From Candidatus Nanoarchaeia archaeon (lineage in GTDB: Archaea; Nanobdellota; Nanobdellia; Woesearchaeales; ARS49), in NCBI GenBank assembly GCA_041484255.1, contig JBGPHE010000001.1, forward strand, positions 6,240 through 70,239: a stretch of DNA of 64,000 nt, written 5' to 3'. The position numbers were made by a program, and so were the translations under genes. Under the pieces are notes generated by a model. It had not been told where the DNA came from. It saw only the letters and a program-made list of their open reading frames with translations, and ran no database searches. Positions within the stretch are counted from its first letter, which is position 1, and every line of letters starts with the position of its first letter. This document shows, piece after piece, positions 3,125-39,700 of this stretch.

Positions 3125-3146
3125 TCGGTGAACACATATTCTCTCT

Positions 3147-3311
3147 ATGTCTATCGTTGTGAAAGCGAAAATCAAGGAGATTGCGGGCACGTTTAACGTG
3201 TCCGGAGACTTCGCTGACGCGCTGGCCAAGAAGGTCGAGCAGATGGTCAAAGACGCTATCGAACGCGCGAAGTCGAACAATCGAAGAACGGTTATGCCGA
3301 AGGATATCTAG
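3147..3311 (+). CDS. Small (54 aa) histone-fold-like protein, DUF1931-like; not in the ORF track because it is under 60 aa
   Basis: ATG at 3147 is preceded by an in-frame stop at 3129. TATA CTTTATATAC at 3115-3124, 24 bp upstream. Translation MSIVVKAKIKEIAGTFNVSGDFADALAKKVEQMVKDAIERAKSNNRRTVMPKDI ends in an RRTV..DI motif resembling archaeal histone alpha3 (GRKTI..DI). Confidence 0.35.
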   Translation: MSIVVKAKIKEIAGTFNVSGDFADALAKKVEQMVKDAIERAKSNNRRTVMPKDI

Positions 3312-9367: not shown

Positions 9368-10483
9368 ATGGACTTTGCACGACCGAATGCTCCGACGAAC
9401 GATCCTAAGCTGATGCAGCGCAGGCCGCAGACGCAGCACAGCGCTGATGCTGAATTGGAAGAATTGCTTTCGAAGCAGCGCGCCACCATCAAGGTGGTGG
9501 GCTGCGGCGGCGGCGGTAACAACACGATCAACCGAATCACCGAAGTCGGCATTCAGGGCGCGGAAACCATCGCCGTGAACACGGACGCGCAGGACCTGCT
9601 GTACACGACGGCGGACAAGAAAATTCTCATCGGGCGCGAGGTCACGAAAGGGCTCGGCGCTGGCGCTGACCCCAAGGTCGGCGAGGAAGCCGCGCGCGAG
9701 AACGAGCACGATATCAAGACCGCGCTGCAGGGCGCGGACATGGTCTTTATCACCGCAGGCCTCGGCGGCGGCACGGGCACTGGCTCAGCGCCGGTCGTTG
9801 CCGATATCGCGAAGCGCATGGGCGCATTGACCGTCGGCGTCGTCACCATGCCGTTCGTGATGGAAGGAAACAGGCGTTATGATAACGCAGTCATCGGTCT
9901 GGAGAAATTGGAGCAGATCGTGGACACGCTCATCGTCATTCCGAACGACAAGTTGCTTGAATTGGCTCCTGATTTGCCGTTGCACACCGCGTTCAAGGTC
10001 GCGGACGAGATTCTGACGAATGCCGTCAAAGGCATCGCAGAGCTTGTCACGCGCGCAGGTCTCGTAAACCTGGACTTCGCAGACATCCGCGCAGTGATGC
10101 GCAATGGCGGCGTCGCATTGATCGGCGTCGGCGAAAGCGATTCTGAGAATCGCGCGACCGAAGCGGTCGAGAAAGCCATCAACAACCCGTTGCTCAATGT
10201 CGACATCACCGGAGCGTCTGGCGCGCTGATCAACATCGCAGGCTCCAAGGACTTGACGCTGAACGAAGCGCGCAAAGTCGTGGAAACCATCTCGTCGAAG
10301 CTCTCCGAGGATGCCAAAATCATCTGGGGCGCGCAAATCTACGAGGACCTCGGCAGCTCATTGCGTTGCATGCTCATCGTGACCGGCGTGAAGAGCCCGC
10401 AAATCTTCGGCCAGGGCAAGACGATTTCCAGCGCAGAGAAGAAGGAAATCGAAAACGAGCTCGGCATCGAGTTTGTGGATTAA
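9368..10483 (+). CDS. ftsZ: Cell division GTPase FtsZ
   Basis: Tubulin/FtsZ GTP-binding signatures GCGGGGNN and [23 protein letters not shown] at 9315-9322. Oligo-T run at 10484-10494 after the stop. Confidence 0.95.
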
Positions 10484-10512: not shown

Positions 10513-10533
10513 GCCGCTTTTATTAAGAGCGTC

Positions 10534-11298
10534 ATGAAAAAGCAGTTATGCCTTATCTGGCTCGTTTTACTCTTGACCCCTTTAGTGCTTGCAGATGATT
10601 TTCCAGTAGACGTCAACGCAAACATTAGCACAAAGGAGATTAAAGATGCGTATGTTGTGGGCGACTTTTTCTATTACGACATCACGTTATCGTATAGAGG
10701 GGAGAAACCAGTAAACAACACATTCACAGTCAACATTCTCAAACCGAATAACGCAATAGTAAGCACAATCAACTACCCGTTTGAGCTTCAACCGAACACA
10801 AGCGTAGAAATAATCACGAAAGGTGCAACAAAAGGGAACGAAACAAACTGGTATTACCCATTTGACATTGAAGGAGACTACGAGATAGAAATAGTATCCG
10901 CAATTCCTGTCGACTTTTATCGATGGTTCCCAATAAGTAATGATGCCAACACCAAATCGGCAATTAGACAAACGAAGTTTACACAATTCTTTGATGTAAT
11001 GCCTCGCTGGCAATACACATTATGGAAGCGAACTGAAAAAACGAATGAAGATGCGCAAAAGGCGAATGACGAGATGCTTAAATTAAACAAAGACGCTAAT
11101 AAGACAAATTTGATTATGCTTGTCATTACGTTTTTTGCTTTGTTTATCTCAGGTGCAGATCTTATACGGCAAATTCGTAAAGATAATGAGAAAACCAAGC
11201 TTGGATGTTTCTTACAAGCCGTCGAGATTGCGTTTTGGCTTGTTGGTTTTTACTTTTTGATTCACGTGCTTCTAATTTTTATTAATAACGGAATTTAA
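10534..11298 (+). CDS. Secreted/membrane protein of unknown function encoded in an AT-rich island
   Basis: N-terminal signal peptide MKKQLCLIWLVLLLTPLVLA and C-terminal TM helices. TATA CTATATAAA at 10504-10512, 22 bp upstream. The ORF-track TTG start at 10366 would overlap ftsZ and is rejected. Confidence 0.5.
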   Translation: MKKQLCLIWLVLLLTPLVLADDFPVDVNANISTKEIKDAYVVGDFFYYDITLSYRGEKPVNNTFTVNILKPNNAIVSTINYPFELQPNTSVEIITKGATKGNETNWYYPFDIEGDYEIEIVSAIPVDFYRWFPISNDANTKSAIRQTKFTQFFDVMPRWQYTLWKRTEKTNEDAQKANDEMLKLNKDANKTNLIMLVITFFALFISGADLIRQIRKDNEKTKLGCFLQAVEIAFWLVGFYFLIHVLLIFINNGI

Positions 11299-23626: not shown

Positions 23627-23917
23627 GTGAAAAAAGAGGGTGTTGAGAGTAAAGAGTACGAGAAATTCATACCGAGAGTCATCTTCACCTACTCGACGGA
23701 GCATCTTCTCAAGAAAGACAAGGTCAGATTCTATTACGCGCTGAAGGGCCGCGACGGAAAAACCGGCATCGTCAAGCGCTGCGCCATCGAACAGCTCGGC
23801 CGCACCGTGCTTCTCGTCCCGACGAAACACGCGGCAGATGTCGATGAATTCCTGAAGTACTGGAAGTGCGAATTCCAGCAGCGCCGCGTGCTCGTCGAGC
23901 CGGGAGTGGGCAAATGA
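23627..23917 (+). CDS. Small basic protein (96 aa) heading the giant-gene operon; GTG start, no internal Met
   Basis: ORF with GTG start 49 bp after TATA 23571-23578. Its TGA overlaps the ATG of giant gene 1 (ATGA at 23914-23917). Confidence 0.4.
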   Translation: MKKEGVESKEYEKFIPRVIFTYSTEHLLKKDKVRFYYALKGRDGKTGIVKRCAIEQLGRTVLLVPTKHAADVDEFLKYWKCEFQQRRVLVEPGVGK

Positions 23918-26900
23918 CTCCTGAAAAGCGCGTCGCGTTCGCCGTGCTCCTCTGCGCGGCGATTATCGGCGCAGGCGTGATGCTGCGCGATGCGCACGTG
24001 ACCGGCGATGCGACGTTCGGCACAACAGACTTCACGACGCAGGCAGTCGTCGCGCCCAAGCAGGTCATCCTCATCATCGTCGACGGAATGCAGTACAACC
24101 ATTACGTCACCATGCTGGGCTTCGGCAACCTGTCGAACTTCACGCGGCTGCTGAGCCGCGGCGGCTTCAACACCACGCTGAACATCACAAAGCACACCAG
24201 CACGGTCACCGCGCCGGGCAACGCAGAAATCTACACCGGATTGGGCAGCAGCATCACCGGCGTGACCTCGGACAACTGCAGCACGCCGGTGCCGGTCAAC
24301 ACCACCATCTTTGAGCGGCTCAAACAGTTCAACGCAAGCATCGCGACCGGGACTGTCTACGGCAAGCAGACCTGCTACATTCCGAACGGCGTGCTCGGCA
24401 ATGCCATGTCCGCAATCGACTGGTTCCAGAACCGGTCGCTGTACACGAATACGAACTGGACCGACAACGGCGATATTTGCGCATACGCCCGCAATGCCTC
24501 CACCAAGGCACAGGAGTTCATCGTCAACAACACCAACCGGTCGTTCTTCCTGGTACCGTACTTCGGCAACCCCGACTGCTCAGGCCATGTCGGCACGGAC
24601 AACTCGGTCAATTACAATAACTCCTTCATCGAGGTTGACTACGCGCTCGGCATCCTGCTGGACACGCTGCGCGACCAGGGCATCGAGAACAACACGGCGA
24701 TCATCATCAGCACCGACCACGGCTGGAACGAGGGAACCACAGGCCACTCAACGTTCAATGCGGACACCGCAATCATCCCCCTCATCACCAACAACCGCAG
24801 TGTCATTGCGAACGCGACCATCCTGGGCGTGCGCCAGCAGTGCGACATCGCACCGACCGTGCTGAGCTATTTCGGCGTGCCCTCGGCGAATTACTCAGAC
24901 ATCATCGCCAATGGCTGCTACTCGATGTACGACTCGCTGTTTGACACGCTCACCGGCTGCGCGACTATCAACGCGAGCACGACGCTCGGCCAGAACATCC
25001 AGGCGCCGGGCTCGGGAAGCTGCATCATCGTGAACGCGGACAATATCACGCTCAGCTGCGCAGGGTTCAGCATCGGCGGCAATGCGGCCGGCACCGGCAT
25101 CAATGTCACGAACCGCGCGAATGTCACCATCAAGGACTGCGTTCTTGAGAATTTCACCAACAACATTGTCCTCAACAGCACCAATGCAAGCGTCATCGTC
25201 AACACCACCGCCCGAAAGTCGACGTCCACAAGCATTCTTGTCAGGCAGGGCTTGCGCAACCTCCTCGCAAACAACACAGTCTCCGGCGATTTCATCGGCA
25301 TTCTGCTCTTCAACGGATCCAATAACACCCTGCGCAGCAACAACGTCAGCGGAATCTCGACCGGAATCACGCTGTTTTTCACGCAGAACAACACACTGAT
25401 CAATGATACCGGCGCGAGCACGTCAGGCACCGGCATTTTCCTCACCGCGTCTATCAACAACACGCTGAACAGCGTGCTCGCAACAAGCGTCAGCGGCAAC
25501 GGCCTGATGTTTTCCAGCATGGGTTTGGGAAACAACGTCATCGCGAATACGACCGGCCGCAGCAGCAGCGGCATCGGTGTGTACCTTACGAGCGGCGCGA
25601 ATCTCAATACCCTGCTGAACGTCACTGCCGCAAGCGACAGCAATGCGGCGCTCGCGTTTGACTTTTCCAGCGGAAGCAACCTGTTCAATGACACCACGCT
25701 CCTCAGCAACAGCACGTGGCTGTCGGCAGACAGCGACAGCTACTTCAATACCCTCACCAATGCCAGCTTCGTGTCCCAGTTTGGCGGCATCGCCGTCCTG
25801 AGAAACTTCACCCTTCCGAACGCGACGACCGTCACCCTCGCATCACTGAACATCACGAGCAACCGCGCGTTCCTGAACAGCACGAACCTGTCGTTCCTGA
25901 ACCAGACCGCAGTCATCACGCTGAACGGCGTCACGTCCGTCGACCCGAAGCCGCAGGTGGCCTTGGTCGATGGCGGGGCGTTCTCGGACTGCCTGCCGAC
26001 CGCAGACCCGTTCTGCACCGAACTGAGCTTCAGCGGCGGCGTGTTTGTCTTCAATGTCTCGCATTTCACGACCTTTGCGTCGTTTGAGAGCGCGGACGTG
26101 AATGTGACGCTGACCAAGTCAGACTCGCCCGACCCGGTGAACGCGAGCGGCTATCTGACCTACACTATTACAGTCAATGTCTCAGTGGGCAACGCAAGCA
26201 ATGTAACGCTTACCGATGTCTACCCTGCGCAAGTCATCTTCAATGGCTCCCAGCCCGCGCCGCTTGCCGGAACGAACAACACGTTTGTCCTGGGCAACCT
26301 GTCGCTGAACACCAGCACCGTCGTCAATATCACTGTGCTCGTGCTGAACGTGAGCAACAACACCATCATCAACAATACCGCGAACATCTCGTTCCAGAAC
26401 TCGACCGGCGGCATCGGACGGCTGAACGTGACTGAGAACACTACGGTCATCAACCTCACGTTCCCCGCGCCCTCGCCTTCGCCGACAAGCAGCGGCGGAA
26501 CCAGTGGCGGAGGCGGCTACAGCGTCAGGCCCACACCGAACGCTCCGTCAGTCGCTGCGTCGCAGAACTGCTTCGAAGGCTGGGCGTGCGAAGGCTGGAG
26601 CAGGTGCGAGAATGGCGCGCAGGAGCGCGCGTGCGTTGACCTGAATCACTGCGGCACCGAATCGCTCAAGCCCGCGACGACGCAGTCGTGCGCGAGCCCG
26701 CACGTGCAGGAGCTGGTGCAGGAAGAAGTCGTGGAGCAGCCCGCCGAGCTGCCCCCGCAGCAACCGCAACAGCCTATCCAGTTGCAGATGCAGGGTACAG
26801 AAACGTCTGCCGTGAAGACCGCGTTCTTCACATCCGGAAGCGCGCTGCTCTGGCTGCTCTTGTTCATCATCCTCGGCGGAATCATCGTCACGATCGCATA

Positions 26901-27228
26901 CGCGAAGTTCATGCACCGCGCTCCCGAAGCGCCCGAACCCGACCTTCCGCCCGCGCCGGGACGCGAAGAGCCGCTGCCCGCGCCTGAGCTTGACAATGGC
27001 CTTGCGCAAGAGCACGAAACGCCCTTTACTGAGGAGCTTGAGCTGCAGCCCGCGATAAGCAAGCCCGAACCAGAAGTGCAACGCGCGCTTCCCAAGCCTC
27101 GCGTGGCACGCAGCCGCGAAGAATTGGAGCAGATTGAACGCAAGCTCGCAAGCATTGAGAGTTCATTATCACGCAGCCGGCGCGCCGCACCAAAGCGCAG
27201 CAGCGCACGCAGGAGGACGCGCAAATGA
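23914..27228 (+). CDS. Giant surface protein 1 (1104 aa): signal anchor, nucleotide pyrophosphatase/phosphodiesterase (AlkP-superfamily) domain, parallel beta-helix repeats, DUF11 domain, six-Cys stalk module, TM helix, basic tail
   Basis: Single open frame; domain motifs described in findings; N-x-S/T-rich; C-terminal TM about 26830-26905. Stop overlaps the gene 2 ATG. Confidence 0.8.
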   Translation: MTPEKRVAFAVLLCAAIIGAGVMLRDAHVTGDATFGTTDFTTQAVVAPKQVILIIVDGMQYNHYVTMLGFGNLSNFTRLLSRGGFNTTLNITKHTSTVTAPGNAEIYTGLGSSITGVTSDNCSTPVPVNTTIFERLKQFNASIATGTVYGKQTCYIPNGVLGNAMSAIDWFQNRSLYTNTNWTDNGDICAYARNASTKAQEFIVNNTNRSFFLVPYFGNPDCSGHVGTDNSVNYNNSFIEVDYALGILLDTLRDQGIENNTAIIISTDHGWNEGTTGHSTFNADTAIIPLITNNRSVIANATILGVRQQCDIAPTVLSYFGVPSANYSDIIANGCYSMYDSLFDTLTGCATINASTTLGQNIQAPGSGSCIIVNADNITLSCAGFSIGGNAAGTGINVTNRANVTIKDCVLENFTNNIVLNSTNASVIVNTTARKSTSTSILVRQGLRNLLANNTVSGDFIGILLFNGSNNTLRSNNVSGISTGITLFFTQNNTLINDTGASTSGTGIFLTASINNTLNSVLATSVSGNGLMFSSMGLGNNVIANTTGRSSSGIGVYLTSGANLNTLLNVTAASDSNAALAFDFSSGSNLFNDTTLLSNSTWLSADSDSYFNTLTNASFVSQFGGIAVLRNFTLPNATTVTLASLNITSNRAFLNSTNLSFLNQTAVITLNGVTSVDPKPQVALVDGGAFSDCLPTADPFCTELSFSGGVFVFNVSHFTTFASFESADVNVTLTKSDSPDPVNASGYLTYTITVNVSVGNASNVTLTDVYPAQVIFNGSQPAPLAGTNNTFVLGNLSLNTSTVVNITVLVLNVSNNTIINNTANISFQNSTGGIGRLNVTENTTVINLTFPAPSPSPTSSGGTSGGGGYSVRPTPNAPSVAASQNCFEGWACEGWSRCENGAQERACVDLNHCGTESLKPATTQSCASPHVQELVQEEVVEQPAELPPQQPQQPIQLQMQGTETSAVKTAFFTSGSALLWLLLFIILGGIIVTIAYAKFMHRAPEAPEPDLPPAPGREEPLPAPELDNGLAQEHETPFTEELELQPAISKPEPEVQRALPKPRVARSREELEQIERKLASIESSLSRSRRAAPKRSSARRRTRK
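24052..24900 (+). other. Nucleotide pyrophosphatase/phosphodiesterase (type I phosphodiesterase, AlkP-superfamily) domain of giant protein 1
   Basis: Motifs in NPP-like order: IIVDG (24079-24093), KHTSTVTAPG...YTG (Thr nucleophile context, about 24205-24240), PYFGNPDCSGHVG (24571-24594), STDHGW (24707-24724). Confidence 0.6.
26569..26691 (+). other. Six-Cys membrane-proximal module, copy in gene 1 (CFEGWACEGWSRCENGAQERACVDLNHCGTESLKPATTQSC)
   Basis: Conserved pattern shared with 35943-36065 and 52951-53073. Confidence 0.7.
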
Positions 27229-30200
27229 GCGGCAACGCACAGAAGCGGACCGTGATGCTGCTCGTGCTTGCCTTGGGCCTGCTCGGCGTAGGTACTATGA
27301 TATTCGGCTCGACGCACAGCCCTGCCGCGCTGACCGGACTTGTTACTGACAATGCAAGCGTTCAGCCGGAAGCGCCTGCTGAGCAGCAGCCGATTCCCGA
27401 ATTGCAGGCAGAAGCGACGCCAGAACCGTCATTCTCCACCGAAGCGGCCGCTCCGCGGCTCGTCGATCCTGCGGTGGAACGAGCGCTTGCGGAGAACGGC
27501 ACCGCAGACATCATCATCATCCTCAAAGAAGACGCCGCGTCGCTGTTCGAAACCGAAACGAGCCAAGCAGATGCGCTCGCGCAGCGAAAGGCGTCTGTCG
27601 CGGCCGTGCGCACGGCGTTCGCCGCGGAAATGGGCGGCGGATTCGGAACTGCGAGCAACGCGTTCGAAGTCACGCGCGAGTATGATACGCTCAATGCCAT
27701 CGCGGCAACCATCACCAGCGTCGGCCTGGAAATCTTGAAGACGCGCCAGTCGGTCGAACAGATCGTGCTGGACCGCAGGCTCACGGTCGACCTTACCGTG
27801 AGCGTGCCGCTCATCGATGCGGACGACGTCTGGAACCTCACCGTCAACGGAAGCAACCTCACCGGCAAGGGCGAGGTCATCTGCATCATCGACACAGGCA
27901 TCGACGCCACGCACGTCGCGTTCACCAACAAGATTTTGCCCGGCCAGGACTATGTCAATGAAGACAGCAATCCCGCCGACGACGCGGGCCACGGCACGCA
28001 CGTCTCGGGCATCGCCGCGGGCAACAGCAGCCCGGTGCTCGGCGTCGCAAAGGACGCGAAGATCCTGCCCGTCAAGGTGTGCGACAGCGGCGGCACGTGC
28101 CAGGACACGGATATCCTTGCAGGCATCGACTTCTGCAACAACAACTCGGCGACCTACAACATCAGCGCGATTTCCGGCTCGCTCGGCGACAACAGCCAGT
28201 ACAACTCGACGACCTGCCCGACCACGTACGACAGCATCTTCGCGACGTCGAACTCCTTGGGGCTTATTCCGGTCTTCGCGTCGGGCAACAATGCGTTCAC
28301 GAACGGCATCAGCCACCCTGCCTGCTCGCCGTACGCCATCAGCGTGGGCTCCACGACCAAGGCAGACGCGATGAGCTCGTTCACAAACAGAGGGGGCGAC
28401 CGCCTGGACGTTCTCGCGCCCGGCAGCAGCATTGTTTCCGCGCTCATCACTGGCGGAACCGTCTCCGCATCGGGAACATCGATGGCCACGCCGCACGTCT
28501 CGGGAGCGATCGCGCTCATCCAGCAGAACCAGCGCGCGCTGAACCGCGCCATTGTCAACATCACCGACATGCGCACATTGCTCCAGCAGACCGGCGTGAA
28601 TGTCACGAGCTGGCAGCGCATCGACGTGTACAACGCGATCGCCAAGCTCAACCAGAACTACACCATCAACATCACGGACAACTCTATCGCGAACGGAACG
28701 ACACGCGGCGCAAAGGTGCGGTTCAGCAACTTCACCGATATGAGCAGGTTCGTGGATTGCGGCGTAGTCAGACCCAACTTTGTAGGCATCGACTCCGCAG
28801 CATGCCCGCAGCTGAACAAGAGCGCGCACATCACGTTCGCGAACATCACTGGCATCGGCGCCAGGCCGCTGCGCAACGGCGTGCCCTGCCCGCCCAGCAT
28901 CTGCCAGAACTTCACGTTCGGCAACGGCACGGTCGACTTCGACGTCACGGAGTTTTCAAACTACAGCAGCTTCAACCTGACGAACCTCACCGGCTGCGCG
29001 AACGTGAACGTCAGCTCGGTGCTGACGCAGAACGTCTCCAGCACGAGCAACTGCATCAACATTACTGGAAACAATGTCATCCTGTTCTGCAACGGATTCA
29101 CAATTGCGTTCGACACGGCAGGCGGCGGGCTTGACAACGGCATCAGGGCCAACCAGCGCCGCAATATCACGGTCGACAGCTGCATCATCAGAGATACCAA
29201 TGCAGGAGGCGCGGGCGCTGTGGGAATCGTCGTCAATGGGACGAACAACAGCATCTTCATCAACAACTTTATCCAAGTCAACGGAACGGCGAACAACAAC
29301 GGCTTCATCCTGGACTTGTTTGCGAATAATGTCACCATCGCCAACAACACCGTCAACTCGCGCGGAACGCTCGCGTTCGATTTCCCCATCCAAGTCAGGA
29401 ACCCCGTCAGCAATATCACCATCGCCAACAACACGCTCGTGACGGTGGGCTTGGGCAACAGCGAATGGGGCATTGACGACAGCGGGCTCCAGGACACAGT
29501 CGTCACCAATAATATAATCATTGCACTTTCGGACGGCGGCCTCAACTTCGGCTTTCGCGTGAATGCAGTGCCCCTCAATCTTCAGGTAAGCGACAACAAC
29601 ATCAGCGTGAACGGGAGCGGAAGCTATGCGCTCGTGTTCCCCGACTCTTTAGGGAGCACGCCCAATACCACATTCTCCAACAACGTACTGGGCACGACCA
29701 GCGGCTGGATTACCGTGGGCGCCTTCGCGCGAGTCAACATCACCAACACCACGTTCCGCATGCCGAACGGCAGCATCACCATCCCCGGAACGGTGCAGCT
29801 CAACGAATCGACGGACGTGCTGATTTCCAAGCTGAACATTTCTGCAAATCAGGCGTACCTGAACAGCACAAACCTGACCGCGCTCAACACGACCGCGATC
29901 ATCGCGCTGAACAGTGTCGGCTTCAATGATCCCAAGCCGCAGTTCAGGTTCGGCGAGACCGGCGCGTTCACCGACTGCACACCCACCGTCAACCCGTTCT
30001 GCACCGAGCTGGGCTTCAGCGGCGGCGTCTTCACGTTCAATGTCTCGCACTTCACCGGCTACATCAGCGCGGAAGGCGGCAGCGTCAACCTCACCGGCTG
30101 CGCGACCGTCAACGCGAGCACGGTGCTGACGCAGAACATCGCGTCCAATGACACGTGCCTCTTCACGAACGCGAGCAATATCGTCATCTCCTGCGCAGGG

Positions 30201-33200
30201 CACACCATCACGTACAATGCCAACGGAAGCGGCGCCCTGAGCGATTTCGGAATCAATGTCACGCGCTCATCCAACCTGACCATCACTGACTGCATCGTCC
30301 GCAACGGCAACCTGTCGAGCACCATCGGCGACGCGATGAGCGTGTTCTTCACGAATTACAGCACCTTCAACAACATCTCGCTTGCGGACAACGGCTCCAA
30401 CATCGGGCTGTTCATCATGACGTCGCACAATAACACGTTCGGAAACGATACTGTCCTGACAGGATCTGTTGAGCTGAACGCCATCGCGGAGAACAACTTC
30501 ACCGGCAATGCGTTCAATGGCTCCATTGACAATAGCAACAGCAGGCGGGACATCTTCACGTTCAACACGATGAACGCATCCGTCTCCCTCCAGTCAGGCG
30601 ACGCACGCCTGCGCTTCAACAACATCACCGTCTCCGGCGCGGGTCCGGGCATCAACACCGATCCCGCCGGACCGTTCGAGTTCACCGGCAACCGCGTCGA
30701 GGTGAACGGCGTGAACCCGACCGCGTTCCGCCTTGCCGCGAGCAACGGCAACTTCACCAACAACACGTTCCTTGCGAACGCGTCCGGCACGTCTGTCGCA
30801 ATCAGCATCGAGGCGAGCTCGTCAGGGAACTTCACCGGCAACAATTTCACCGCGCGCGGGACCGCCTCGACCGCGATCCGCTGGCAGTTCTCAGTCCCCA
30901 ACACGACGAGCTTCAGGGACACCGTCATCTCTTCAGACGCAAGCTGGATTGACATGAATCCGAGCGGCGCGGTCACGCCGTCCATCAATTACACGAACAC
31001 GACGTTCGTTTCGGGCAACGGCAGCATTAACATCATCGGCTTCGCGCAGCTGAACAACACCCAGAACGTCACGCTTGCCCGGCTCAATATCTCATCCAAC
31101 CGCGCGTTCCTGAACACTACGAACATCTCCGCATTCAACCAGACCGCAGTCATCGCGCTGACCGGCATCGGCTTCACTGACCCGAAGCCACAGGTCGCCT
31201 TTGTGGATGGCGGCGCGTTCTCGGACTGCTCGCCGACCGCGAACCCATTCTGCACTGAGATAAGTTATACGGGCGGCGTGTTCACGTTCAACACGTCGCA
31301 CTTTACCAGCTTTGACAGCGCGGAAAGCACCGTGACAAACTGCACGCTCGGACCTGTGCTGGTCAACAGCAGCCTCACGCTCGCGCAGGACCTTACCGGC
31401 AACGGCACCTGCCTCATCGCGAACACGAACAACATCGCCATTGACTGCGCAGGATTCGCCATCAACTTCGACCGCGGCGGAGGATTCGGCCCCATATTCG
31501 GCATCGCCGCGCAGAGAAAGACGAACATCAGCATCACCAGCTGCATCATCAGAAGCATCAACGCTTCGGGCCAGAACGGATACTCCATCAACTTCTCGAA
31601 CGTAACACAGTCGGTCATCACCAACAACACGCTCATCGCGAACGGGTCGAACTCGATCGGCATCTACATCGGGGTGAGCTCAGTCGGCGTCAATGTCACC
31701 AACAACACCATCGGCGCATCGCCTATCGGGTTCGTGGTCGGCGTCTCTATCGACAACTCGTCGTTCATCAACGTCAGGAACAGCATACTTATCGCCAACA
31801 GCAGCACCGGCCCTGCCGAGGGCATCCAAGCGACCTCCAACGCGCAATTCATCGCGGTGAGCAACAACAGCATCCGCGTGCTGCAGACTTCAGGCTCCCA
31901 GCCGACAGGATTTGTCATCAATGGCGGCAACGCCACATTCGCAGGCAATACTGTTGTAGTAAATCTGTCCGACACGAGCGACGCGACGGGAATCAGCGTG
32001 GGCGGCGGCGCGGACTTCGTGGTCGAGAACAACACCATTATCCTCGCAATCAACACGACAGACACCATCAACACCAAGCGGGCGTTCCAGCTCGCGTCGC
32101 TGAGCAACGCGGTCGTACGCAACAACACAATCGTCCTGCTTGGCTCTGCCAAGTTCTTCATGGGCATGCTGCTCTCCATCCTGAGCAACGTGACCATCGC
32201 GAATACGAACATCACGTCATTGGCAGAGACGAACACTTCGCTGATAGTCATCGACGGCGTCTTTGGCACAACAACCGTGACGCTGACGAACACAACCCTT
32301 TCCGCGCTCAATGACCCTTGGATCCAGCAAGAAGGAACCGCCGCAACCTCCTCGAACTTCACCAACACAACATTCATCGCGCAGAACGGCTCGGTCCAGT
32401 TCCCTGGATTGGTCCAGATAAACGGCACCAACAACGTGAGCGCGCAGCGGCTCAATATCACCGCGAACCTCGCCTTCCTCAACAGCACCAACCTGACGTT
32501 CCTCAACCAGACTGCAATCATCGCGCTGAAAGGCATCGTATCGGTCAGCCCGAAAGCGCAGGTCGCGTTCGTTGACGGCGGCGCATTCAGCGACTGCATC
32601 AGCACGGCGAACCCGTTCTGCACCAACCTCAGCTACGCAGGGGGCGTCTTCACGTTCAACACGTCGCACTTCACCAGCTACCAGAGCGCGGAGAGCGGGA
32701 CGAACATCACCGGATGCCCCATCACCATTAATGTGAGCACGACGCTGACGCAGAACTTGCAAAGCAACAGCAGCTGCATCACGTTCGGCAATGACAGCAT
32801 CGCGCTCGACTGCGGCGGATTCGCCCTCAACGGCACGCAGAACGGCACCGGCATCAATGCGACCGCAAGGAACAACATCTCCATCGTCAACTGCTTCGTC
32901 AATAACTTCACGCAGGATATCGTGCTCGACCGCGTCAACAACAGCGTGATGCGCAATGACACCGCGCGCAGCGCGGCGCAGGAAGGCGTCCTGCTCTACT
33001 CGGCCGTCAACGACCTCCTCGTGAACGTCTCGGGCGAGGGCGCGGTCAACCGGGACGGAATCCAGCTGGTCAATTCCACCACTGCAGGCACCAACAACAC
33101 GCTCATCGGCGTGAACGGCACGAGCAACAGCTCGTCAGGCGTGGGGCTGAATATCCAAATTGACAATACGACCGTCAATGACAGCAGGGGCGTAAGCCTC

Positions 33201-36200
33201 AACCACCGCGGCATCCAAATCCTCAGTTCGGGCAACCGCGCGACCAACCTCACCGGCATCGGCGTAGACGTCGGAATGCTGGTCACCACCGGCAGCTTCA
33301 ACAACGTGACGGGAAGCACCGGCATCGGCGTCCCCGGCCTCTCATTCAGCAGCGCAAGGAGCACGTACGCCAACAACCTCGGCATCAGCACGAATGGCAT
33401 CGCAATCAGCGTCGCGGGCGGCAACCTCACGCTCGTCAATAACACTGGCAGGAGCAATGCGACCTCAGGCATCAGAATCGACGGGGCAGACTTTAACCTG
33501 ACCGGCAACACCGGCGTCAGCAACACATCGGTCGGCATCCACTCGCCATTGAGTTTCGTCAACAGCATCGTTGTGGGCAACAACGGAACCGGTCCCGCCG
33601 GCATCTCCATCGGCGCAGGCGGCGGCGCGTTCAATGACACGTTCCTCAATAACGTCGGAACGGGCGTTGCAAGCGTGGGATTCGCGATCGGCGGCGACAA
33701 TCAGACTGCCATCAACAACACCGGAACAAGCAACGGCTCGTTCGGCATGCAATTCCTTACCGGCGGCGATAACCTTGCAGTGAACAACACAGGAATCAGT
33801 ACGGCAAGCAGCGGTATCGACGTGCGCGTCTACAGCAGGTCGCGGTTCCTGAATAATACCGCCAGCAGCGGGAGCGCCACGGCACTGGCAATCCTGGTCT
33901 TAAGCACTAATAACACCTTTGCCAACACCACACTCTTCACCAATGCGACTTGGATTATTACCGACGGGACAAGCCCCGACAACAACATCACGAACACGCT
34001 CTTCCAGGGCAGCGCAGGCAGCATCCGCGTCTTCGGCCTCGCGAACATCCCGGGAAGCGCCAACGTGAGCATTGCGCGGCTGAACACGAGCGCGAACCGC
34101 GCGTTCCTGAACAGCACGAACCTGACGTTCCTCAACCAGACCGGACAAGTCACGTTCACCGGCGCGACGAGCAACCAGGTGCTGGTGGACTTTGACGACG
34201 ACAACTCGTTCTCGTTCTGCGACGCGAGCATCTGTTCAGTCGTCAGCTTCGCGGGCGGCACGCTGGTTGTCAATGTCACGCACTTCACGACGTTCTCGTC
34301 GACCACCGGCAACTCGAACATCACGCTGACCAAGACCGACTCGCCCGACCCGGTCAATGCCAGCAGTAATCTGAGCTACCAGATTTCGGTCAATGTCACG
34401 TCCGACAGCCCGAGTAATATTACGCTGACCGACCAATACCCTGCGCAAGTCATCTTCCTCACGGCGCAGCCGTCGCCCATCGGCGGAACGAACAATACGT
34501 TCATTGTCGGCAATCTGACCGCGAATATGTCGTTCACGGTAAACGTCACCGTGCTCGTGCTGAACATCACCAACGGCACCGTCATCAACAACACTGCAAA
34601 CATCTCGTTCCAGAACAGCACGGGCAGCGTCATCGCGCTGAGCGTGACCGAGAACACCACCGTCAGCAATCCGCCGCAGATTAACGACAGCACGATCAGC
34701 GTGACCAAGACCGACACCCCCGACCCGGTCGAGAACGGCACGCAGCTCAACTATACTATCACGGTGACGGTCATCAGCGGCGTTTCCGCGTTCAATGTCA
34801 CGGTCAATGACACGTATCCGTCGCAGGTCATCTTCAACAGCGGCCAGCCGTCTCCGGTGCCGGGAACGAACACCACGTTCATCCTCGGCAACCTGTCTGC
34901 GGGCGCGGTCGTCGTGCTCAATATCACTGTGAATGTCTCGGCAGGCGTCATCAACGGCACCGTCATCAACAACACCGTCAATGTCACATTCCAGAACACG
35001 ACCGGCGGCCTGCTGAGCGCGCTCGCGAACGCGAGTACGACTGTGCAGAACGTGACGGTCAATGTCACAACGTTGTTCAACCTGAGCAACATCAGTGTCA
35101 TCAAGACCGACACGCCCGACCCGGTGACTGCAGGCGACATACTGACCTACCAAATCAATGTCACGAGTAACGGCAACGGCACCGCGTTCAACGTGATTGT
35201 CAATGACACGTACCCTGCGGAAGTTATCGCGTTCATGTCCTCCCCTCCGCTCGTTCCGGGAACGAACAACACGTACACGCTCGGCAACCTGACGCCCGGC
35301 ACGCTCTTCACCATCAACTTCAGCGTCGCGGTCAGGAACATCACGAACGGCACGGTCATCAACAACACCGTCAATGTCACGTTCCAGAACGAGACCGGTG
35401 GATTGTTCAGCAGAGTCACCACGCAGAACACCACCGTCCTGAACCCGCCAGTCTTCAACCTCAGCAATGTCAGCGTGACGAAGAGCGACACGCCCGACCC
35501 GGTCGAGAACGGCACGCAGCTCAACTATACTATTACGGTCACGAGCACGGGCAACGGCACGGCGTTCAATACAACCGTCATCGACACGTACCCTGCTGAA
35601 GTCGTCTTTAACACCGCCCAGCCGACGCCGAGTTCGGGCAATAACACGTTCATCATCGGCAACTTGACCGCGGGAACGGTTGTCGTGCTGAACATCACGG
35701 TCAATGTGACGCAGGTCGCAAACGGAACCGTCATCAACAACACCGTCAATGTCACGTTCCAGAACGAGTCGAGTGACTTGCTGAGCGCGCTTGCGAACAC
35801 GAGCACGCTGGTGCAGAACGTCACGCCGACGCCCACGCCTCCGACGCCGCAAGGCAGCAGCGGCGGAAGCGGTGGCGGCGGAGGATTCAGCATCAGACGC
35901 AATGAGACTGTCGCGGCAGGAGTTCCCGCCCCGTCAGGACCGTGCGTCGAAAGCTGGGCGTGCGAGCAGTGGGGCCAGTGCCAGGACGCCAGCCAGGCAA
36001 GAATCTGCGTCGACTTGAGCCAGTGCGGCACGGCGACATTGAAGCCGGCGACCGAGCAGCGCTGCGCGATTACGCCGCTGCGCGAGCAGCCGATACCTGT
36101 GGAGCCTGAACAGCCTGCGCCCGTGCAAGTGAGCGCGCCCGTTCCGGTTGTTGTGCAGGAGAAATCAAAGAGCTGGACGCTTGTAGGCATCCTGCCGGTC

Positions 36201-36731
36201 GCGATTGACGTATTGCTCATCCTCTTCGCGCTTATCGCAATGACGCACATGCTGCGTTACCGCAGCGATCGCGCGAGCGGGCACTGGCTGGCGGCAGTGG
36301 ACATCATCGGAGGAATCACACTCATCGCGCTTGTCGCACACTACATCATCAGCAGGGCATTCCTGCCGGTCGAGTACATCACCTTTGTCGTATTGCTGCT
36401 GTTTGTCGCAGTGCTGCGGCTTGCCGAGCGCGGCAGGGACTTCGGAGGAGCGCCGCGCGTTCCGCGCATCCCTGCATTGCCTGATGCGCCTGAGGAAATA
36501 GTCCTTGAAGACGAGCCCGCGCCGAAGAAAGCAGCAATCAAGGCTCCGAAGGCAGAGCACAAGCACGCGGGCCCGAAGAAGCCCTTGTTCAGCTTCTTCC
36601 AGCCCAAACCGAAGGTCGAGGACGACATGAAGGACGTCTTTGACTCGCTCGACCGCATCAGCACGCTGCTGGAGAGGAACAAAGTCACGATCAGAGCTCC
36701 GAAAAAGAAGAGCCGGGTGAGAAAAAAGTAA
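27225..36731 (+). CDS. Giant surface protein 2 (3168 aa): signal anchor, I9 propeptide, subtilisin S8 protease, four beta-helix blocks separated by two-Cys junction modules, 4 DUF11 units, six-Cys stalk module, 3 C-terminal TM helices, basic tail
   Basis: Single open frame of 9.5 kb. Catalytic triad motifs IIDTGID / HGTHVSG / GTSMATPHVSG. Confidence 0.8.
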   Translation: MSGNAQKRTVMLLVLALGLLGVGTMIFGSTHSPAALTGLVTDNASVQPEAPAEQQPIPELQAEATPEPSFSTEAAAPRLVDPAVERALAENGTADIIIILKEDAASLFETETSQADALAQRKASVAAVRTAFAAEMGGGFGTASNAFEVTREYDTLNAIAATITSVGLEILKTRQSVEQIVLDRRLTVDLTVSVPLIDADDVWNLTVNGSNLTGKGEVICIIDTGIDATHVAFTNKILPGQDYVNEDSNPADDAGHGTHVSGIAAGNSSPVLGVAKDAKILPVKVCDSGGTCQDTDILAGIDFCNNNSATYNISAISGSLGDNSQYNSTTCPTTYDSIFATSNSLGLIPVFASGNNAFTNGISHPACSPYAISVGSTTKADAMSSFTNRGGDRLDVLAPGSSIVSALITGGTVSASGTSMATPHVSGAIALIQQNQRALNRAIVNITDMRTLLQQTGVNVTSWQRIDVYNAIAKLNQNYTINITDNSIANGTTRGAKVRFSNFTDMSRFVDCGVVRPNFVGIDSAACPQLNKSAHITFANITGIGARPLRNGVPCPPSICQNFTFGNGTVDFDVTEFSNYSSFNLTNLTGCANVNVSSVLTQNVSSTSNCINITGNNVILFCNGFTIAFDTAGGGLDNGIRANQRRNITVDSCIIRDTNAGGAGAVGIVVNGTNNSIFINNFIQVNGTANNNGFILDLFANNVTIANNTVNSRGTLAFDFPIQVRNPVSNITIANNTLVTVGLGNSEWGIDDSGLQDTVVTNNIIIALSDGGLNFGFRVNAVPLNLQVSDNNISVNGSGSYALVFPDSLGSTPNTTFSNNVLGTTSGWITVGAFARVNITNTTFRMPNGSITIPGTVQLNESTDVLISKLNISANQAYLNSTNLTALNTTAIIALNSVGFNDPKPQFRFGETGAFTDCTPTVNPFCTELGFSGGVFTFNVSHFTGYISAEGGSVNLTGCATVNASTVLTQNIASNDTCLFTNASNIVISCAGHTITYNANGSGALSDFGINVTRSSNLTITDCIVRNGNLSSTIGDAMSVFFTNYSTFNNISLADNGSNIGLFIMTSHNNTFGNDTVLTGSVELNAIAENNFTGNAFNGSIDNSNSRRDIFTFNTMNASVSLQSGDARLRFNNITVSGAGPGINTDPAGPFEFTGNRVEVNGVNPTAFRLAASNGNFTNNTFLANASGTSVAISIEASSSGNFTGNNFTARGTASTAIRWQFSVPNTTSFRDTVISSDASWIDMNPSGAVTPSINYTNTTFVSGNGSINIIGFAQLNNTQNVTLARLNISSNRAFLNTTNISAFNQTAVIALTGIGFTDPKPQVAFVDGGAFSDCSPTANPFCTEISYTGGVFTFNTSHFTSFDSAESTVTNCTLGPVLVNSSLTLAQDLTGNGTCLIANTNNIAIDCAGFAINFDRGGGFGPIFGIAAQRKTNISITSCIIRSINASGQNGYSINFSNVTQSVITNNTLIANGSNSIGIYIGVSSVGVNVTNNTIGASPIGFVVGVSIDNSSFINVRNSILIANSSTGPAEGIQATSNAQFIAVSNNSIRVLQTSGSQPTGFVINGGNATFAGNTVVVNLSDTSDATGISVGGGADFVVENNTIILAINTTDTINTKRAFQLASLSNAVVRNNTIVLLGSAKFFMGMLLSILSNVTIANTNITSLAETNTSLIVIDGVFGTTTVTLTNTTLSALNDPWIQQEGTAATSSNFTNTTFIAQNGSVQFPGLVQINGTNNVSAQRLNITANLAFLNSTNLTFLNQTAIIALKGIVSVSPKAQVAFVDGGAFSDCISTANPFCTNLSYAGGVFTFNTSHFTSYQSAESGTNITGCPITINVSTTLTQNLQSNSSCITFGNDSIALDCGGFALNGTQNGTGINATARNNISIVNCFVNNFTQDIVLDRVNNSVMRNDTARSAAQEGVLLYSAVNDLLVNVSGEGAVNRDGIQLVNSTTAGTNNTLIGVNGTSNSSSGVGLNIQIDNTTVNDSRGVSLNHRGIQILSSGNRATNLTGIGVDVGMLVTTGSFNNVTGSTGIGVPGLSFSSARSTYANNLGISTNGIAISVAGGNLTLVNNTGRSNATSGIRIDGADFNLTGNTGVSNTSVGIHSPLSFVNSIVVGNNGTGPAGISIGAGGGAFNDTFLNNVGTGVASVGFAIGGDNQTAINNTGTSNGSFGMQFLTGGDNLAVNNTGISTASSGIDVRVYSRSRFLNNTASSGSATALAILVLSTNNTFANTTLFTNATWIITDGTSPDNNITNTLFQGSAGSIRVFGLANIPGSANVSIARLNTSANRAFLNSTNLTFLNQTGQVTFTGATSNQVLVDFDDDNSFSFCDASICSVVSFAGGTLVVNVTHFTTFSSTTGNSNITLTKTDSPDPVNASSNLSYQISVNVTSDSPSNITLTDQYPAQVIFLTAQPSPIGGTNNTFIVGNLTANMSFTVNVTVLVLNITNGTVINNTANISFQNSTGSVIALSVTENTTVSNPPQINDSTISVTKTDTPDPVENGTQLNYTITVTVISGVSAFNVTVNDTYPSQVIFNSGQPSPVPGTNTTFILGNLSAGAVVVLNITVNVSAGVINGTVINNTVNVTFQNTTGGLLSALANASTTVQNVTVNVTTLFNLSNISVIKTDTPDPVTAGDILTYQINVTSNGNGTAFNVIVNDTYPAEVIAFMSSPPLVPGTNNTYTLGNLTPGTLFTINFSVAVRNITNGTVINNTVNVTFQNETGGLFSRVTTQNTTVLNPPVFNLSNVSVTKSDTPDPVENGTQLNYTITVTSTGNGTAFNTTVIDTYPAEVVFNTAQPTPSSGNNTFIIGNLTAGTVVVLNITVNVTQVANGTVINNTVNVTFQNESSDLLSALANTSTLVQNVTPTPTPPTPQGSSGGSGGGGGFSIRRNETVAAGVPAPSGPCVESWACEQWGQCQDASQARICVDLSQCGTATLKPATEQRCAITPLREQPIPVEPEQPAPVQVSAPVPVVVQEKSKSWTLVGILPVAIDVLLILFALIAMTHMLRYRSDRASGHWLAAVDIIGGITLIALVAHYIISRAFLPVEYITFVVLLLFVAVLRLAERGRDFGGAPRVPRIPALPDAPEEIVLEDEPAPKKAAIKAPKAEHKHAGPKKPLFSFFQPKPKVEDDMKDVFDSLDRISTLLERNKVTIRAPKKKSRVRKK
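27462..27798 (+). other. Subtilase propeptide (inhibitor I9-like) of giant protein 2
   Basis: IIIILKEDAASLFE...FEVTREYDTLNAIAATITSVGLEILKTRQSVEQIVLDRRL precedes the catalytic domain. Confidence 0.55.
27850..28630 (+). other. Subtilisin-like serine protease (S8) catalytic domain of giant protein 2
   Basis: Asp at about 27888-27906 (IIDTGID), His at 27990-28010 (HGTHVSG), Asn at about 28279-28296 (ASGNN), Ser at 28471-28498 (GTSMATPHVSG). Confidence 0.8.
34310..35830 (+). repeat. Array of 4 DUF11-type (TIGR01451 conserved repeat domain) units in gene 2, about 380 nt each
   Basis: Each unit: [IV]T[KL]TD.PDPV......L.Y.I.V.......NVT..D.YP..V.F...QP.P..GTNNTFI.GNLT.....V.NITV.V.N.....VINNT.N..FQN. 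Confidence 0.65.
35943..36065 (+). other. Six-Cys membrane-proximal module, copy in gene 2 (CVESWACEQWGQCQDASQARICVDLSQCGTATLKPATEQRC)
   Basis: Same Cys/Trp spacing as the gene 1 and gene 3 copies. Confidence 0.7.
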
Positions 36732-36738
36732 TCAATTG

Positions 36739-39700
36739 ATGGGGGACATGGGCAGAAACAGACGAGGGGTGGTGTCTGAACGGACGCTTATTGGCATTGT
36801 GCTACTTGCAGGGCTGCTCGGCATCGGCGTGATGCTCTGGGCGACGGGAATCGTCTCCTTTGCGCAGCAGCACGGCGTCACCGGCAGCGCGGTCGCGTCC
36901 ATCACCGGCCTCGCAGCGGATGATCTCGAAACGCAGCCGTCATTCACGGCCACGCCCGCTCCGAACACGGCGCCTATCTATAGAGGCCCTGCCAGCTTCA
37001 GCACGCCGCAGGACACAGCACTCACGATTGACTTGTCGCAGTACTTCTCCGATGCGGAAAACGACGAACTCACCTTCATCGCGTCGTCCGAAGACGTCAT
37101 CGCAGTCGCCATCGACGGCAACGCGCTCACGCTGACGCCTGCGGCAGGCTTCGCGGGCGAGCGTTCGCTGACCGTCATCGCGTCAGACGGCGTCAACCTC
37201 GCGCGCACGCCGGTCAAGATTGTCGTGGAAGGCACGCAGGCCACGCCGCCTGCACCGCAGCAGGAAGCTCCTGCGCCTGTGGAGCAGCCGCCCGCGACCA
37301 ACGAGTCCGCAGCGAACGAGACGCCGTTCAATACGCAGGAAGAAGAATTCACCAATCCTGTATTCAACACGCAAGTCACGAGCATCAGCGCCTGCACGAA
37401 CATCAGCACGCCGGGCGAGTACGCGCTCAGCACCGACCTCTCGCGGAACATCACCTGCATCGTCATCCAGACAGACAACGTGAGCTTCAGCTGCGCAGGC
37501 CACACTATCACCTGGGACACGCAAGGTCTGCGAAACATCTCAGGCTTCACGAGCTTCATCTCCGCGATCAACATCAACAAATCAGGCAGGACGCTCTTCA
37601 ATGTCACAGTCAGGGACTGCCGCCTGATCGACGGCACTGTCGGCGGATTCAACGACCACGCGATCGTGCTGCAGGACACGAACGATTCGCTCATTTTCAA
37701 CAACACCCTCGTTGCATCCGGCGAGACGTCGCTGGGAATTGAGATTGTTCGGACGGGAAACATCAACATCTCAAGCAACCGCATCAATGCGTCGTCGTTC
37801 GGAGGCGCTCAGGCGATCGCCAACGCGATCCAGTTCAATCTTTTCAGCAATAATGTCAGCATCTCCGACAATGACATCCGCGGATTCCTTTCCGGCAGCG
37901 GAATCAGGACGGTCGGCGTGATGGTTGACGCGACCTCGAATCCCCACGATGTGGAAGTCGTCGGGAACAGTATCACCGTCAACTCGACCGGTGGAAGCGC
38001 AACCTCAACAGGGATGAACGGCGTCACCGGCTTCGGCACATTCCTCAACGCGACCAACAATGACGTGCAGGCGTTCGGCTCAGGACCGAGCGGCGTGCTG
38101 GCAAATGGGGCGTTCTTCAACCGCATCCTCGCGCGGGGTTCCACCGCAGAGGGTCTGCGTGTCGGAGAGCTTGCAGACTCCAATAATATCACTGTGAATG
38201 GCAGCACCACTGGCGCGCTCGTGGGGTTTAACGGCAACTCGACATACAGCAACAACCGGCTCATCGCGACCGGCAGCTGGATATATACTTCCTTGAACGG
38301 GAACACTACTTTCATCAACACCACGTTTGTCAACGCAAATGGCACCCTCCTGTTCTACAATTTCTACATTGATGATGTCGTCATTGTCCAGCAGAGCGAC
38401 CTCAATACCACCATCAACCACGCCTATGTGAACAGCGTCGACTTCCCGTTCCTGAACACGAGCGCGGAGATCTTCCTGCAAGGATTCAATCTCACGAACA
38501 ACAAGCCCGTGGTCGACTACACGGACACCAACCACTTCCAGGGCTGCCCGGACACCTGCACGCTGCTCGAGACGGGCGACAACTTCATCCGCTTCACCGT
38601 CACGCACTTCACGACCTACTCGTCTTCGGACCTGGTCCTGCTGCTCGAAAAGTCCGACAGCACCGACCCGGTGCGCATCGGCTCGCTGTTCAATTACAGC
38701 GTCGCCGTGAGCGTGCTGAACGGCAACGCGAACAATGTCACGCTCACCGACCTGTACCCGCTTGAAGTTGTCTTCAATTCCTCGCAGCCTGACCCGATCG
38801 ACGGCACGAACGACACGTTCATCCTGGGCAACCTGACCGAGAACACGACGTTCATAGTGAACATCACGGTGCAGTCGCTGACGAACGATTCAGGCATCGT
38901 CAACGTCACCAACGGCACCGTCATCAACAACACCGTGAACATCACGTTCCAGAACGACACGAGCGACGTGTTCACGCTGAACGACACCGAGGAGACGACG
39001 CTCGTTGAGGCGACCGAGAACTTCGAGCCGCTCTCGGACTGCGCAGTCATCAATACCAGCTCGTTCCTGACGACGAGCGTTTCGGGCACGGGCACGTGCA
39101 TCACCATCGGCAATAACAGCATCACGCTGGAATGCGCAGGGAACACGATAACGTATGCGACAACAGGCCCGGGAAGCGCTATTTTCGCGGAAGACAAGTA
39201 TAATTTCACGGTGCGGAACTGCACGCTCGTGCTCGGCGACCTCAACAGGCTCTCCCTGTATGACTCGCCAGCCATCAACGCGACGAACACCACGAGCGGA
39301 GTCAACAACCGTATCGACGGCTCCTCGTTCCGCCTGCTCAATTACTTCTACCAGGACGGTTTGCCGCAGCAGAACTGCGGCGACCTCTCATTGAATGACT
39401 CAGCCTTCACCGGCAACGCCACGTGCACGAACATCACCTTTGTTGCGCGGGCGCGTATCAGGGTGAACTCGACCGCGGTCTCCAACAACTCAATCGCGTT
39501 TATCACGGACAACTTCCTGCTCGGGGTGCGCGCGTTCATCAACGCGAACGGCACCGGATACCCTGGAGGCGCGGATGGTAATGCGAACGGCTCCGGCCCC
39601 GGAGGCGGCATCGACCCGGTCAGTATCAATCGCGGCGGCGGCGGCGCAGGACACGGCGGAATCGGCGGCCAGAGCAATGTGCCGCAGGGCGCAGGCGGAA

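Follow-up and report, generated by a model that had tools for sequence, protein, structure and literature searches.

A six-cysteine module before the C-terminal membrane helix of three giant archaeal proteins and its probable membership in a large uncurated family of extracellular mini-domains

The analyzed 64,000-nt stretch of DNA (hereafter, the window; positions 6,240 to 70,239 of contig JBGPHE010000001.1, assembly GCA_041484255.1, Candidatus Nanoarchaeia archaeon) encodes three complete giant proteins, each of which contains a single copy of a Cys-rich module close to its C-terminal membrane helix. With moderate confidence, we interpret this module as an independently folding extracellular mini-domain of ~41 residues that belongs to a large uncurated repeat family of DPANN archaea and candidate phyla radiation (CPR) bacteria and plays a structural role, not that of a sorting or processing signal. 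In kind, the module belongs with small disulfide-rich extracellular repeats, thrombospondin type-1 and EGF-like domains among them, and it is undescribed within the libraries and papers searched.

The module copies are located on the plus strand at positions 26569-26691 (copy 1, residues 902-942 of protein 1; CFEGWACEGWSRCENGAQERACVDLNHCGTESLKPATTQSC), 35943-36065 (copy 2, residues 2907-2947 of protein 2; CVESWACEQWGQCQDASQARICVDLSQCGTATLKPATEQRC), and 52951-53073 (copy 3, residues 5406-5446 of protein 3; CIENWVCEGWGPCTDGKQTRLCEDQSSCGTVARKPSTEFDC). In translation, each copy comprises 41 aa with six Cys and two Trp residues at identical spacing, the cysteines following the pattern C-x5-C-x5-C-x8-C-x5-C-x12-C. 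A six-frame regular-expression scan of the window with the skeleton C-x3-W-x-C-x2-W-x2-C-x8-C-x5-CG-x11-C yielded exactly three matches, vs. none in 100 codon shuffles of the window; the three copies, one per protein, that an earlier note on this DNA had reported are thereby borne out. The fourth giant open reading frame (ORF) contains no copy among its 3348 visible residues in the six-frame scan. The distance from the module to the C-terminus is 178, 221, and 153 residues in proteins 1, 2, and 3, respectively, and a hydrophobic helix begins 38-49 residues after each module, in agreement with the earlier description of the module as standing just before the stalk and transmembrane helix. The spacing is strictly conserved, as had been claimed, but the companion claim that the rest of each protein is divergent did not hold, since the adjoining upstream DUF11-type domain is as conserved as the module or more so (48-75% pairwise protein identity, with 75% between proteins 2 and 3 and 50% between proteins 1 and 2). 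The modules themselves are only 49-59% identical, on which grounds an origin of the three copies by recent duplication or gene conversion was rejected. None of the three modules contains an NxS/T sequon, vs. 62, 216, and 375 sequons in host proteins 1, 2, and 3, respectively.

The size of the family was assessed by an exhaustive HMMER search of representative proteins with a profile built from the three window copies only. The module was detected in 5,519 representative proteins at E<=1e-3, 1,196 of which pass E<=1e-10 and 132 pass E<=1e-30, and whole-protein E-values reach 3e-96. The best 150 of the 5,519 carriers contain 699 domain matches, with 3-13 copies per protein; neighboring copies in these carriers are separated by a median of 1 residue, and 412 of the 552 gaps do not exceed 5 residues. 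An N-terminal hydrophobic segment is present in 124 of the 146 proteins among these best 150 carriers that start with Met. Head-to-tail copies combined with such N-terminal segments are the behavior of an extracellular beads-on-a-string module. The three window copies fit the family skeleton C-x3-W-x-C-x2-W-x2-C-x8/9-C-x-D-x3-C-x12-C with Q-x-R and K-P motifs; 355 copies with a length of 41 aa yield the consensus CtEnWsCxxWSxCxNgxQTRTCTDxNnCGTtxnKPxesQsC. When 103 diverse copies are aligned, with window copy 1 as the first row, all six Cys, both Trp, and one Pro (Pro38 in alignment numbering) are invariant, and Arg23 and Asp27 are conserved in at least 90% of sequences.

The domains that accompany the module are diverse. 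In the window, Pfam domains of phosphodiesterase/sulfatase, S8 subtilase, LamG, DUF11, and beta-helix types were identified in the host proteins. The partner-domain survey outside the window covered carriers with 3-10 copies and a set of nine carriers, in which the module is combined with CARDB, PG_binding_1, Kre9/KNH Ig-like, and beta-helix/NosD domains, or with nothing recognizable. The earlier suggestion that the module is specific to the family of giant proteins thus has to be abandoned in view of the 5,519 representative carriers, the best-scoring of which hold arrays of 3-13 or more copies, and the many partner domains.

Existing libraries offered no family for the module. No Pfam-A or NCBIfam model covers it in the window proteins or in the carriers with 3-10 copies, and none covers it in the 103 separate copies at E<=10, where the weak Pfam matches of individual copies (Brr6_like_C_C, 7/103; Nodulin_late, 4/103; and others) were dismissed as scattered Cys-rich noise. 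The module profile retrieved from the PDB sequences only a 24-residue toxin at E 0.47, also dismissed, and a word-indexed protein search with the three-copy and 103-copy alignments returned nothing, the queries being too short. No paper describing the module was found in a literature search, most subscription journals being outside its coverage, so that absence from the literature is unproven. The earlier note had allowed that the module might prove to be a known domain such as an EGF-like or PKD domain; no EGF, PKD, or other Pfam family was matched.

For the taxonomic distribution, each prokaryotic species was represented by a single genome, and these genomes were scanned for a degenerate DNA pattern built on the Cys/Trp/Asp/CG skeleton, which matched at least 120 stretches. 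Among the matches listed, 103 loci are archaeal and 17 are bacterial by record title. The archaeal loci belong mostly to Woese-, Pace-, Nano-, Aenigmat-, Iain-, Micr-, and Nanohal-archaeota or Diapherotrites, and the bacterial ones to Paceibacterota, the Patescibacteria group, Kerfeldbacteria, Saccharibacteria, Parcubacteria, unclassified 'bacterium', and some 'uncultured Gammaproteobacteria'; this last record title, as well as 'uncultured Methanosarcinales', is unverified. By these matches, the module family is found mainly in DPANN archaea and CPR/Patescibacteria, i.e., in ultra-small archaea and bacteria. By cluster look-ups, nearly all carriers examined are unnamed metagenome proteins, and the protein 2 C-terminus has its closest relatives in metagenome-assembled genomes (MAGs) labeled Candidatus Woesearchaeota. 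Many DPANN and CPR lineages live attached to other cells, and many of the carrier organisms live without oxygen.

The position of the module relative to the membrane was compared across the same species scan. Among the matches listed, 102 archaeal-labeled reading frames contain the module, and the C-terminus is complete in 89 of them. In 63 of these 89 frames (71%), a hydrophobic helix lies no more than 150 residues beyond the last module, and in 56 of the 63 the frame also ends no more than 150 residues after that helix. The linker has a median length of 31 residues and the tail one of 27.5 residues. The juxtamembrane position is therefore a general feature of the sampled archaeal carriers. 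Close homologues from MAGs labeled Ca. Woesearchaeota share the whole C-terminal cassette of the window proteins, which consists of DUF11, poly-Gly linker, module, Pro/Glu stalk, membrane helix, and a tail with a heptad-like basic helix. Absence of the module from homologous loci had been named earlier as a finding that would count against it; it is present in most of the homologous proteins, though not in all. The module is thus optional in the cassette and would serve as a structural or docking foot domain. In some archaeal carriers, L001 (about 2347-3291, minus strand), L050, and L058, different short Cys-rich units lie between the module and the helix, e.g., CHDGSCEEGIDCGGPC, which is repeated twice in L001. 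By their sequences, these loci suggest that several kinds of small disulfide-type modules may serve at the membrane-proximal end.

The arrangement of the cysteines was examined in 708 aligned copies, 666 of which span the whole module. All six Cys are kept in 582 of these 666 copies. In 69 copies from 22 proteins, Cys2 and Cys4 are lost together (Cys2 is replaced by Thr or Pro, and Cys4 by Val or Tyr), whereas Cys2 is lost alone only once and Cys4 never. This paired loss in natural variants is strong evidence that Cys2 and Cys4 would form a disulfide and not part of a metal cluster. The four-Cys subfamily, with the pattern C-T-P-x-W-Q-T-G-x-W...R-T-V-T-D, is represented by P0001, P0013, P0027, P0036, and 18 other carriers. 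It builds whole arrays alone, which implies that the fold tolerates the loss of one bond. Cys3 and Cys6 are both missing in two copies, the alignments of which both end before Cys6, and these variants hint weakly at a Cys3-Cys6 and hence a Cys1-Cys5 pairing. Of the disulfide-knotted stalk base proposed in the earlier note, a compact Cys-stabilized unit at the base of the ectodomain stands and its Cys2-Cys4 bond is backed by the paired loss, while the other pairings are tentative.

The AlphaFold2 model of copy 1, computed on the 103-copy alignment, has a mean predicted local distance difference test score (pLDDT) of 92.3 and shows a small beta-rich domain with four short strands. The same four strands are predicted in the model of the protein 2 cassette (313 residues), where the module occupies residues 52-92 with a pLDDT of about 88-92. 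Structure prediction of the module together with the membrane segment, which had been suggested earlier as a check, thus gave a confident module inside the cassette, with a low-confidence linker and stalk around it (the poly-Gly linker has a pLDDT <50, and the means of the stalk blocks are about 46-73); three membrane helices follow the stalk, and a further confident helix is located near the C-terminus. A Foldseek comparison with the PDB yielded no significant match, the best four having E-values of 0.6-3.9 and TM-scores of 0.41-0.54. The top positions are occupied by complement-complex chains, which hold several domain kinds, the Foldseek output being silent on which part aligned, and by the 49-residue MIC2 chain 8j64_B (TM 0.54/0.52). 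Complement components C6, C7, C8-alpha, and C8-beta match thrombospondin repeats. In BFVD, the top match, likewise non-significant, is to a phage protein that bears the name 'Thrombospondin type-1 (TSP1) repeat' (TM 0.56, E 0.46, probability 0.72).

The module resembles the thrombospondin type-1 repeat (1LSL, 2BBX, and MIC2 8J64_B), the top fold match in both libraries, in being a small extracellular unit with six Cys and conserved Trp and Arg that is arranged in head-to-tail arrays. Its W-S-x-C...G-x-Q-x-R-x-C stretch parallels WSxC...GxQxRxRxC of the repeat, and this is the only stretch that hhalign aligns. In TRAP and MIC2 of apicomplexans, a thrombospondin repeat adjoins a stalk, a membrane helix, and a cytoplasmic tail. 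There are, nonetheless, several differences. The repeat comprises about 50-60 residues and the module 41, i.e., 10-20 fewer; three long strands of the repeat are opposed to four short ones in the predicted model; and, where strand B of the repeat has alternating Arg (or Gln) layer residues (RxRxR), the module has a conserved Q-x-R (Gln18 and Arg20), a possible counterpart with one conserved Arg. The thrombospondin repeat is defined by WxxWxxW on the rippled A strand, with disulfides Cys1-Cys5, Cys2-Cys6, and Cys3-Cys4 (PMC2173040). In the module, W-x-C-x-x-W sets the two invariant Trp five residues apart and places a Cys between them, so that the WxxW(xxW) motif is missing, and the putative Cys2-Cys4 bond lies outside the published disulfide pattern (PMC2173040). 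The hhalign probability was as low as 5% against seven verified TSP-1/properdin repeats and 2.6% against two verified TRAP repeats, and no Pfam match of the TSP_1 type was obtained for the three window copies (E<=1), the carriers with 3-10 copies, or the 103 copies (E<=10). We therefore treat the likeness of the modeled module to thrombospondin repeats as a lead on its fold, not as family membership.

Other known domains differ from the module as well. The EGF-like domain shares with the module a length of about 40 residues, six Cys, an extracellular location, and beads-on-a-string arrays. A Cys2-Cys4 bond, as proposed for the module, is also an EGF bond. However, the C-x-C of EGF is opposed to Cys4-x5-Cys5 in the module, the two invariant Trp and the K-P motif of the module are foreign to EGF, and the two variants without Cys3 and Cys6 misfit the EGF pairing, although this last point is weak evidence. 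None of the 103 copies matched EGF models even at E<=10, and no EGF entry was named among the PDB fold matches. PKD and other Ig-like linkers were rejected as well: they are beta-sandwiches of about 80-90 residues, vs. 41 residues with four short strands in the module, and no PKD or Ig match in Pfam fell on the module. DUF11 (TIGR01451) accompanies the module both in the window proteins and in homologues, but it forms a domain of its own, about 100 residues long and lacking the Cys skeleton, and the module lies outside its boundaries.

The earlier note had also proposed that the module is an anchoring or processing signal. As a family-specific signal, it would be read by a sorting or cleavage machine that fixes the giant proteins to the envelope. 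The module always stands just before the stalk and helix in the window and does so in most of the archaeal frames examined, which fits such a signal, and archaeal sorting signals (PGF-CTERM, the substrates of archaeosortases) are likewise located at the C-terminal end of surface glycoproteins, adjoining a membrane helix. Signals of the archaeosortase type, however, combine a short motif with a helix and a short basic tail and terminate the protein, whereas the module is a folded Cys-rich domain that stands 38-49 residues ahead of the helix, with long tails after it (about 87-110 residues or more beyond the helix in the window proteins, not short basic stubs). A sorting signal is also difficult to reconcile with thousands of carriers, many-copy arrays in the best-scoring ones, and the bacterial-labeled frames with a complete C-terminus, only 2 of 16 of which, among the matches listed, have a membrane helix at most 150 residues beyond the module. 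No NCBIfam model of C-terminal sorting signals was matched (E<=1). The homologues P0157, P0158, and P0163 lack the module yet keep the linker, stalk, and membrane helix, from which it follows that the module is dispensable for anchoring; together with module arrays devoid of a C-terminal anchor, they rule out that it is an obligatory anchoring or processing signal, and we consider this explanation hardly tenable. Coordination of zinc or iron by the six Cys, as a metal cluster in place of disulfides, appears very improbable too. Six invariant Cys within 41 residues and the often anoxic habitats of the carriers would suit a cluster. Against it stand the extracellular location of the module between N-terminal anchors and the C-terminal membrane helix, the clean loss of the Cys2/Cys4 pair with the other four Cys kept, which is disulfide behavior and not that of a four- or six-ligand metal site, and the failure of the 103 copies to match any metal-binding family in Pfam.

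The favored interpretation, that of a structural mini-domain, can be put as follows. In the three giant proteins, the module, probably held by three disulfides, would be the final folded part of the ectodomain, linked by a flexible poly-Gly hinge to the sequon-rich DUF11/beta-helix body and by the Pro/Glu-rich stalk to the C-terminal membrane helix or helices and the cytoplasmic tail. Most probably, it would serve as a rigid foot or spacer that resists proteases, and perhaps as a docking point, where a surface-displayed enzyme or adhesin approaches the membrane, and in other proteins head-to-tail modules would build rod-like arrays. Several points weigh against this interpretation. The extracellular topology is inferred, and the spacer role is argued from the architecture; the homologues without the module retain the rest of the cassette; and the conserved polar residues Glu3, Gln18, Arg20, Asp24, and Lys34-Pro35 would also fit a binding surface. 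Moreover, the disulfide pairing derives from natural variants, not from model geometry, with only two variants that end before Cys6 behind the Cys3-Cys6 and Cys1-Cys5 bonds, and extracellular disulfide formation is not guaranteed in the many carrier organisms that live without oxygen. The main rival is an adhesion or docking module that binds a protein or glycan of the host cell, or else another subunit of the surface complex to which it belongs, a possibility to which we give some credence while regarding it as doubtful. Thrombospondin type-1 repeats bind partners, and proteins with such repeats are the best fold matches in two libraries (PDB and BFVD), although every one of these matches is non-significant (E 0.46-3.9) and the comparison with verified repeats by hhalign is poor. 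The conservation of Arg23, Asp27, and Pro38, the attached lifestyle of many DPANN and CPR organisms, with which most carriers are labeled, and the conserved helix in the putative cytoplasmic tail, suggestive of a link across the membrane, also speak for adhesion; on the other hand, arrays with 1-residue linkers are equally typical of spacers and binders, no ligand of the module is known, and some homologues do without it. The partner protein of MIC2, M2AP, is bound by the repeat closest to the membrane, and the PDB entry 8j64 is entitled 'MIC2-M2AP complex'. By analogy with TRAP/MIC2, the module might even be a thrombospondin-repeat-like adhesion or docking domain common to DPANN and CPR, i.e., to two radiations of ultra-small, cell-attached organisms from two domains of life, with the DPANN trans-membrane cassette coupling giant surface enzymes and adhesins to the cell interior. 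We consider this broader version quite unlikely; if true, the coupling cassette would comprise the module, the Pro-rich stalk, the membrane helix, and the conserved cytoplasmic coiled-coil helix.

Surface proteins of DPANN and CPR are likely tools of host attachment, and most of their sequence is unannotated. The presence of the module in at least 5,519 protein clusters, yet outside Pfam-A, NCBIfam, and the PDB, is an annotation gap; a defined module would annotate part of thousands of hypothetical proteins and mark them as extracellular, and in archaea it would also flag a recurrent juxtamembrane anchoring cassette. The interest of the family lies in its size, in its being concentrated among DPANN and CPR, and in the anchoring cassette conserved in archaea. 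That one archaeal and one bacterial radiation both have it brings up the question of gene transfer between the two. Owing to its small size and confident model, the module should lend itself readily to structure determination and binding tests.

The four giant genes are tightly packed on the plus strand, genes 1 and 2 overlapping by 4 nt and genes 2 and 3 being 4 nt apart. According to the ORF list, Pfam, and hydropathy, gene 1 (23866-27228, 1120 aa; the start codon is uncertain, GTG at 23866 or ATG 16 codons downstream) encodes an N-terminal hydrophobic anchor, a phosphodiesterase/sulfatase-type domain, a beta-helix, a DUF11-like domain, poly-Gly, the module, a stalk, a membrane helix, and a tail. 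Gene 2 (27225-36731, 3168 aa), the start of which overlaps the gene 1 stop, encodes an N-terminal anchor, S8 subtilase, four DUF11 stretches, poly-Gly, the module, a stalk, three membrane helices, and a tail; gene 3 (36736-53535, 5599 aa) encodes an N-terminal anchor, four LamG_3 stretches, seven DUF11 stretches, poly-Gly, the module, a stalk, a membrane helix, and a tail. The fourth large ORF begins at 53955 and runs past the end of the window. An N-terminal hydrophobic segment is present by hydropathy in all of proteins 1-4. Throughout the cluster (23866-64000), NxS/T sequons are extremely dense, protein 4 adding 215 to the counts given above, and a strong negative GC skew is combined with a positive AT skew.

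Directly upstream of the linker and module, the last DUF11 domain (PF01345) was identified in protein 2 at 35469-35765 (E 1.2e-10; residues 23-121 of the translated segment 35403-36731) and in protein 3 at 52471-52764 (E 2.7e-8; residues 20-117 of the segment 52414-53535). The poly-Gly run before the module is GGGG followed by YSVRP in protein 1 (26506-26517), with counterparts at 35871-35885 in protein 2 and 52855-52866 in protein 3. The Gly run together with an aromatic-Ser/Arg motif precedes each module by ~15-30 residues (GGGGYSVRP at 26506-26532, GGGGGFSIRR at 35871-35900, and GGGGYRTP at 52855-52875) and recurs in homologues, P0156 with GGGGGGGGYSVRPRN among them; it may serve either as a hinge or as a cleavage site. 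The Pro/Glu/Gln-rich stalk between module and membrane helix spans 26692-26838 in protein 1, 36066-36179 in protein 2, and 53074-53217 in protein 3. It is followed by a single membrane helix in proteins 1 (26839-26895, hydropathy 2.68 over 19 residues) and 3 (53218-53274, hydropathy 2.24) vs. three consecutive helices in protein 2 (36180-36440; helices at residues 135-160, 166-188, and 194-217 of the AlphaFold2 model). The number of helices in protein 2 being odd, the conserved tail helix remains on the same side of the membrane. This amphipathic helix is located near the end of the protein 2 tail at 36615-36692 (model residues 276-301, pLDDT about 87), with counterparts at about 27112-27183 in protein 1 and about 53449-53523 in protein 3. 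The putatively cytoplasmic tails of all three proteins thus share a similar heptad-like helix, which is succeeded by a basic terminus, e.g., LEQIERKLASIESSLSRSRR and MKELDERLKKLERTLSRHRKR, and the same motif ends the homologues P0152, P0155, P0156, P0160, and P0162 from other genomes. The tail helix may mediate clustering or contact with a cytoplasmic partner.

The neighborhood of the giant genes is presumably archaeal, judging from the translated ORFs: we take the ORF at 5396-7024 (minus strand) to be thermosome-like, the one at 9368-10483 to be FtsZ-like, and a further pair of ORFs in the window to be Spt5/L11-like. Two plus-strand stretches, 4533-5393 and 10531-11298, have a lower G+C content (about 0.47-0.48 vs. 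0.55-0.60 around them) and encode a 286-residue protein and a 255-residue membrane-type protein, both without a Pfam match. Between genes 3 and 4, the palindrome TTCATATGAA occurs three times, all within 143 nt of intergenic DNA (53586-53728), which are its only occurrences in the window (chance expectation 0.03). The palindromes lie upstream of a 59-residue MazE/AbrB-type ORF (53786-53965, plus strand; Pfam MazE_antitoxin, E 5.9e-8), the last 11 nt of which overlap the start of giant gene 4. From this arrangement, the ORF and palindromes look like a small DNA-binding regulator with candidate operator sites before gene 4.

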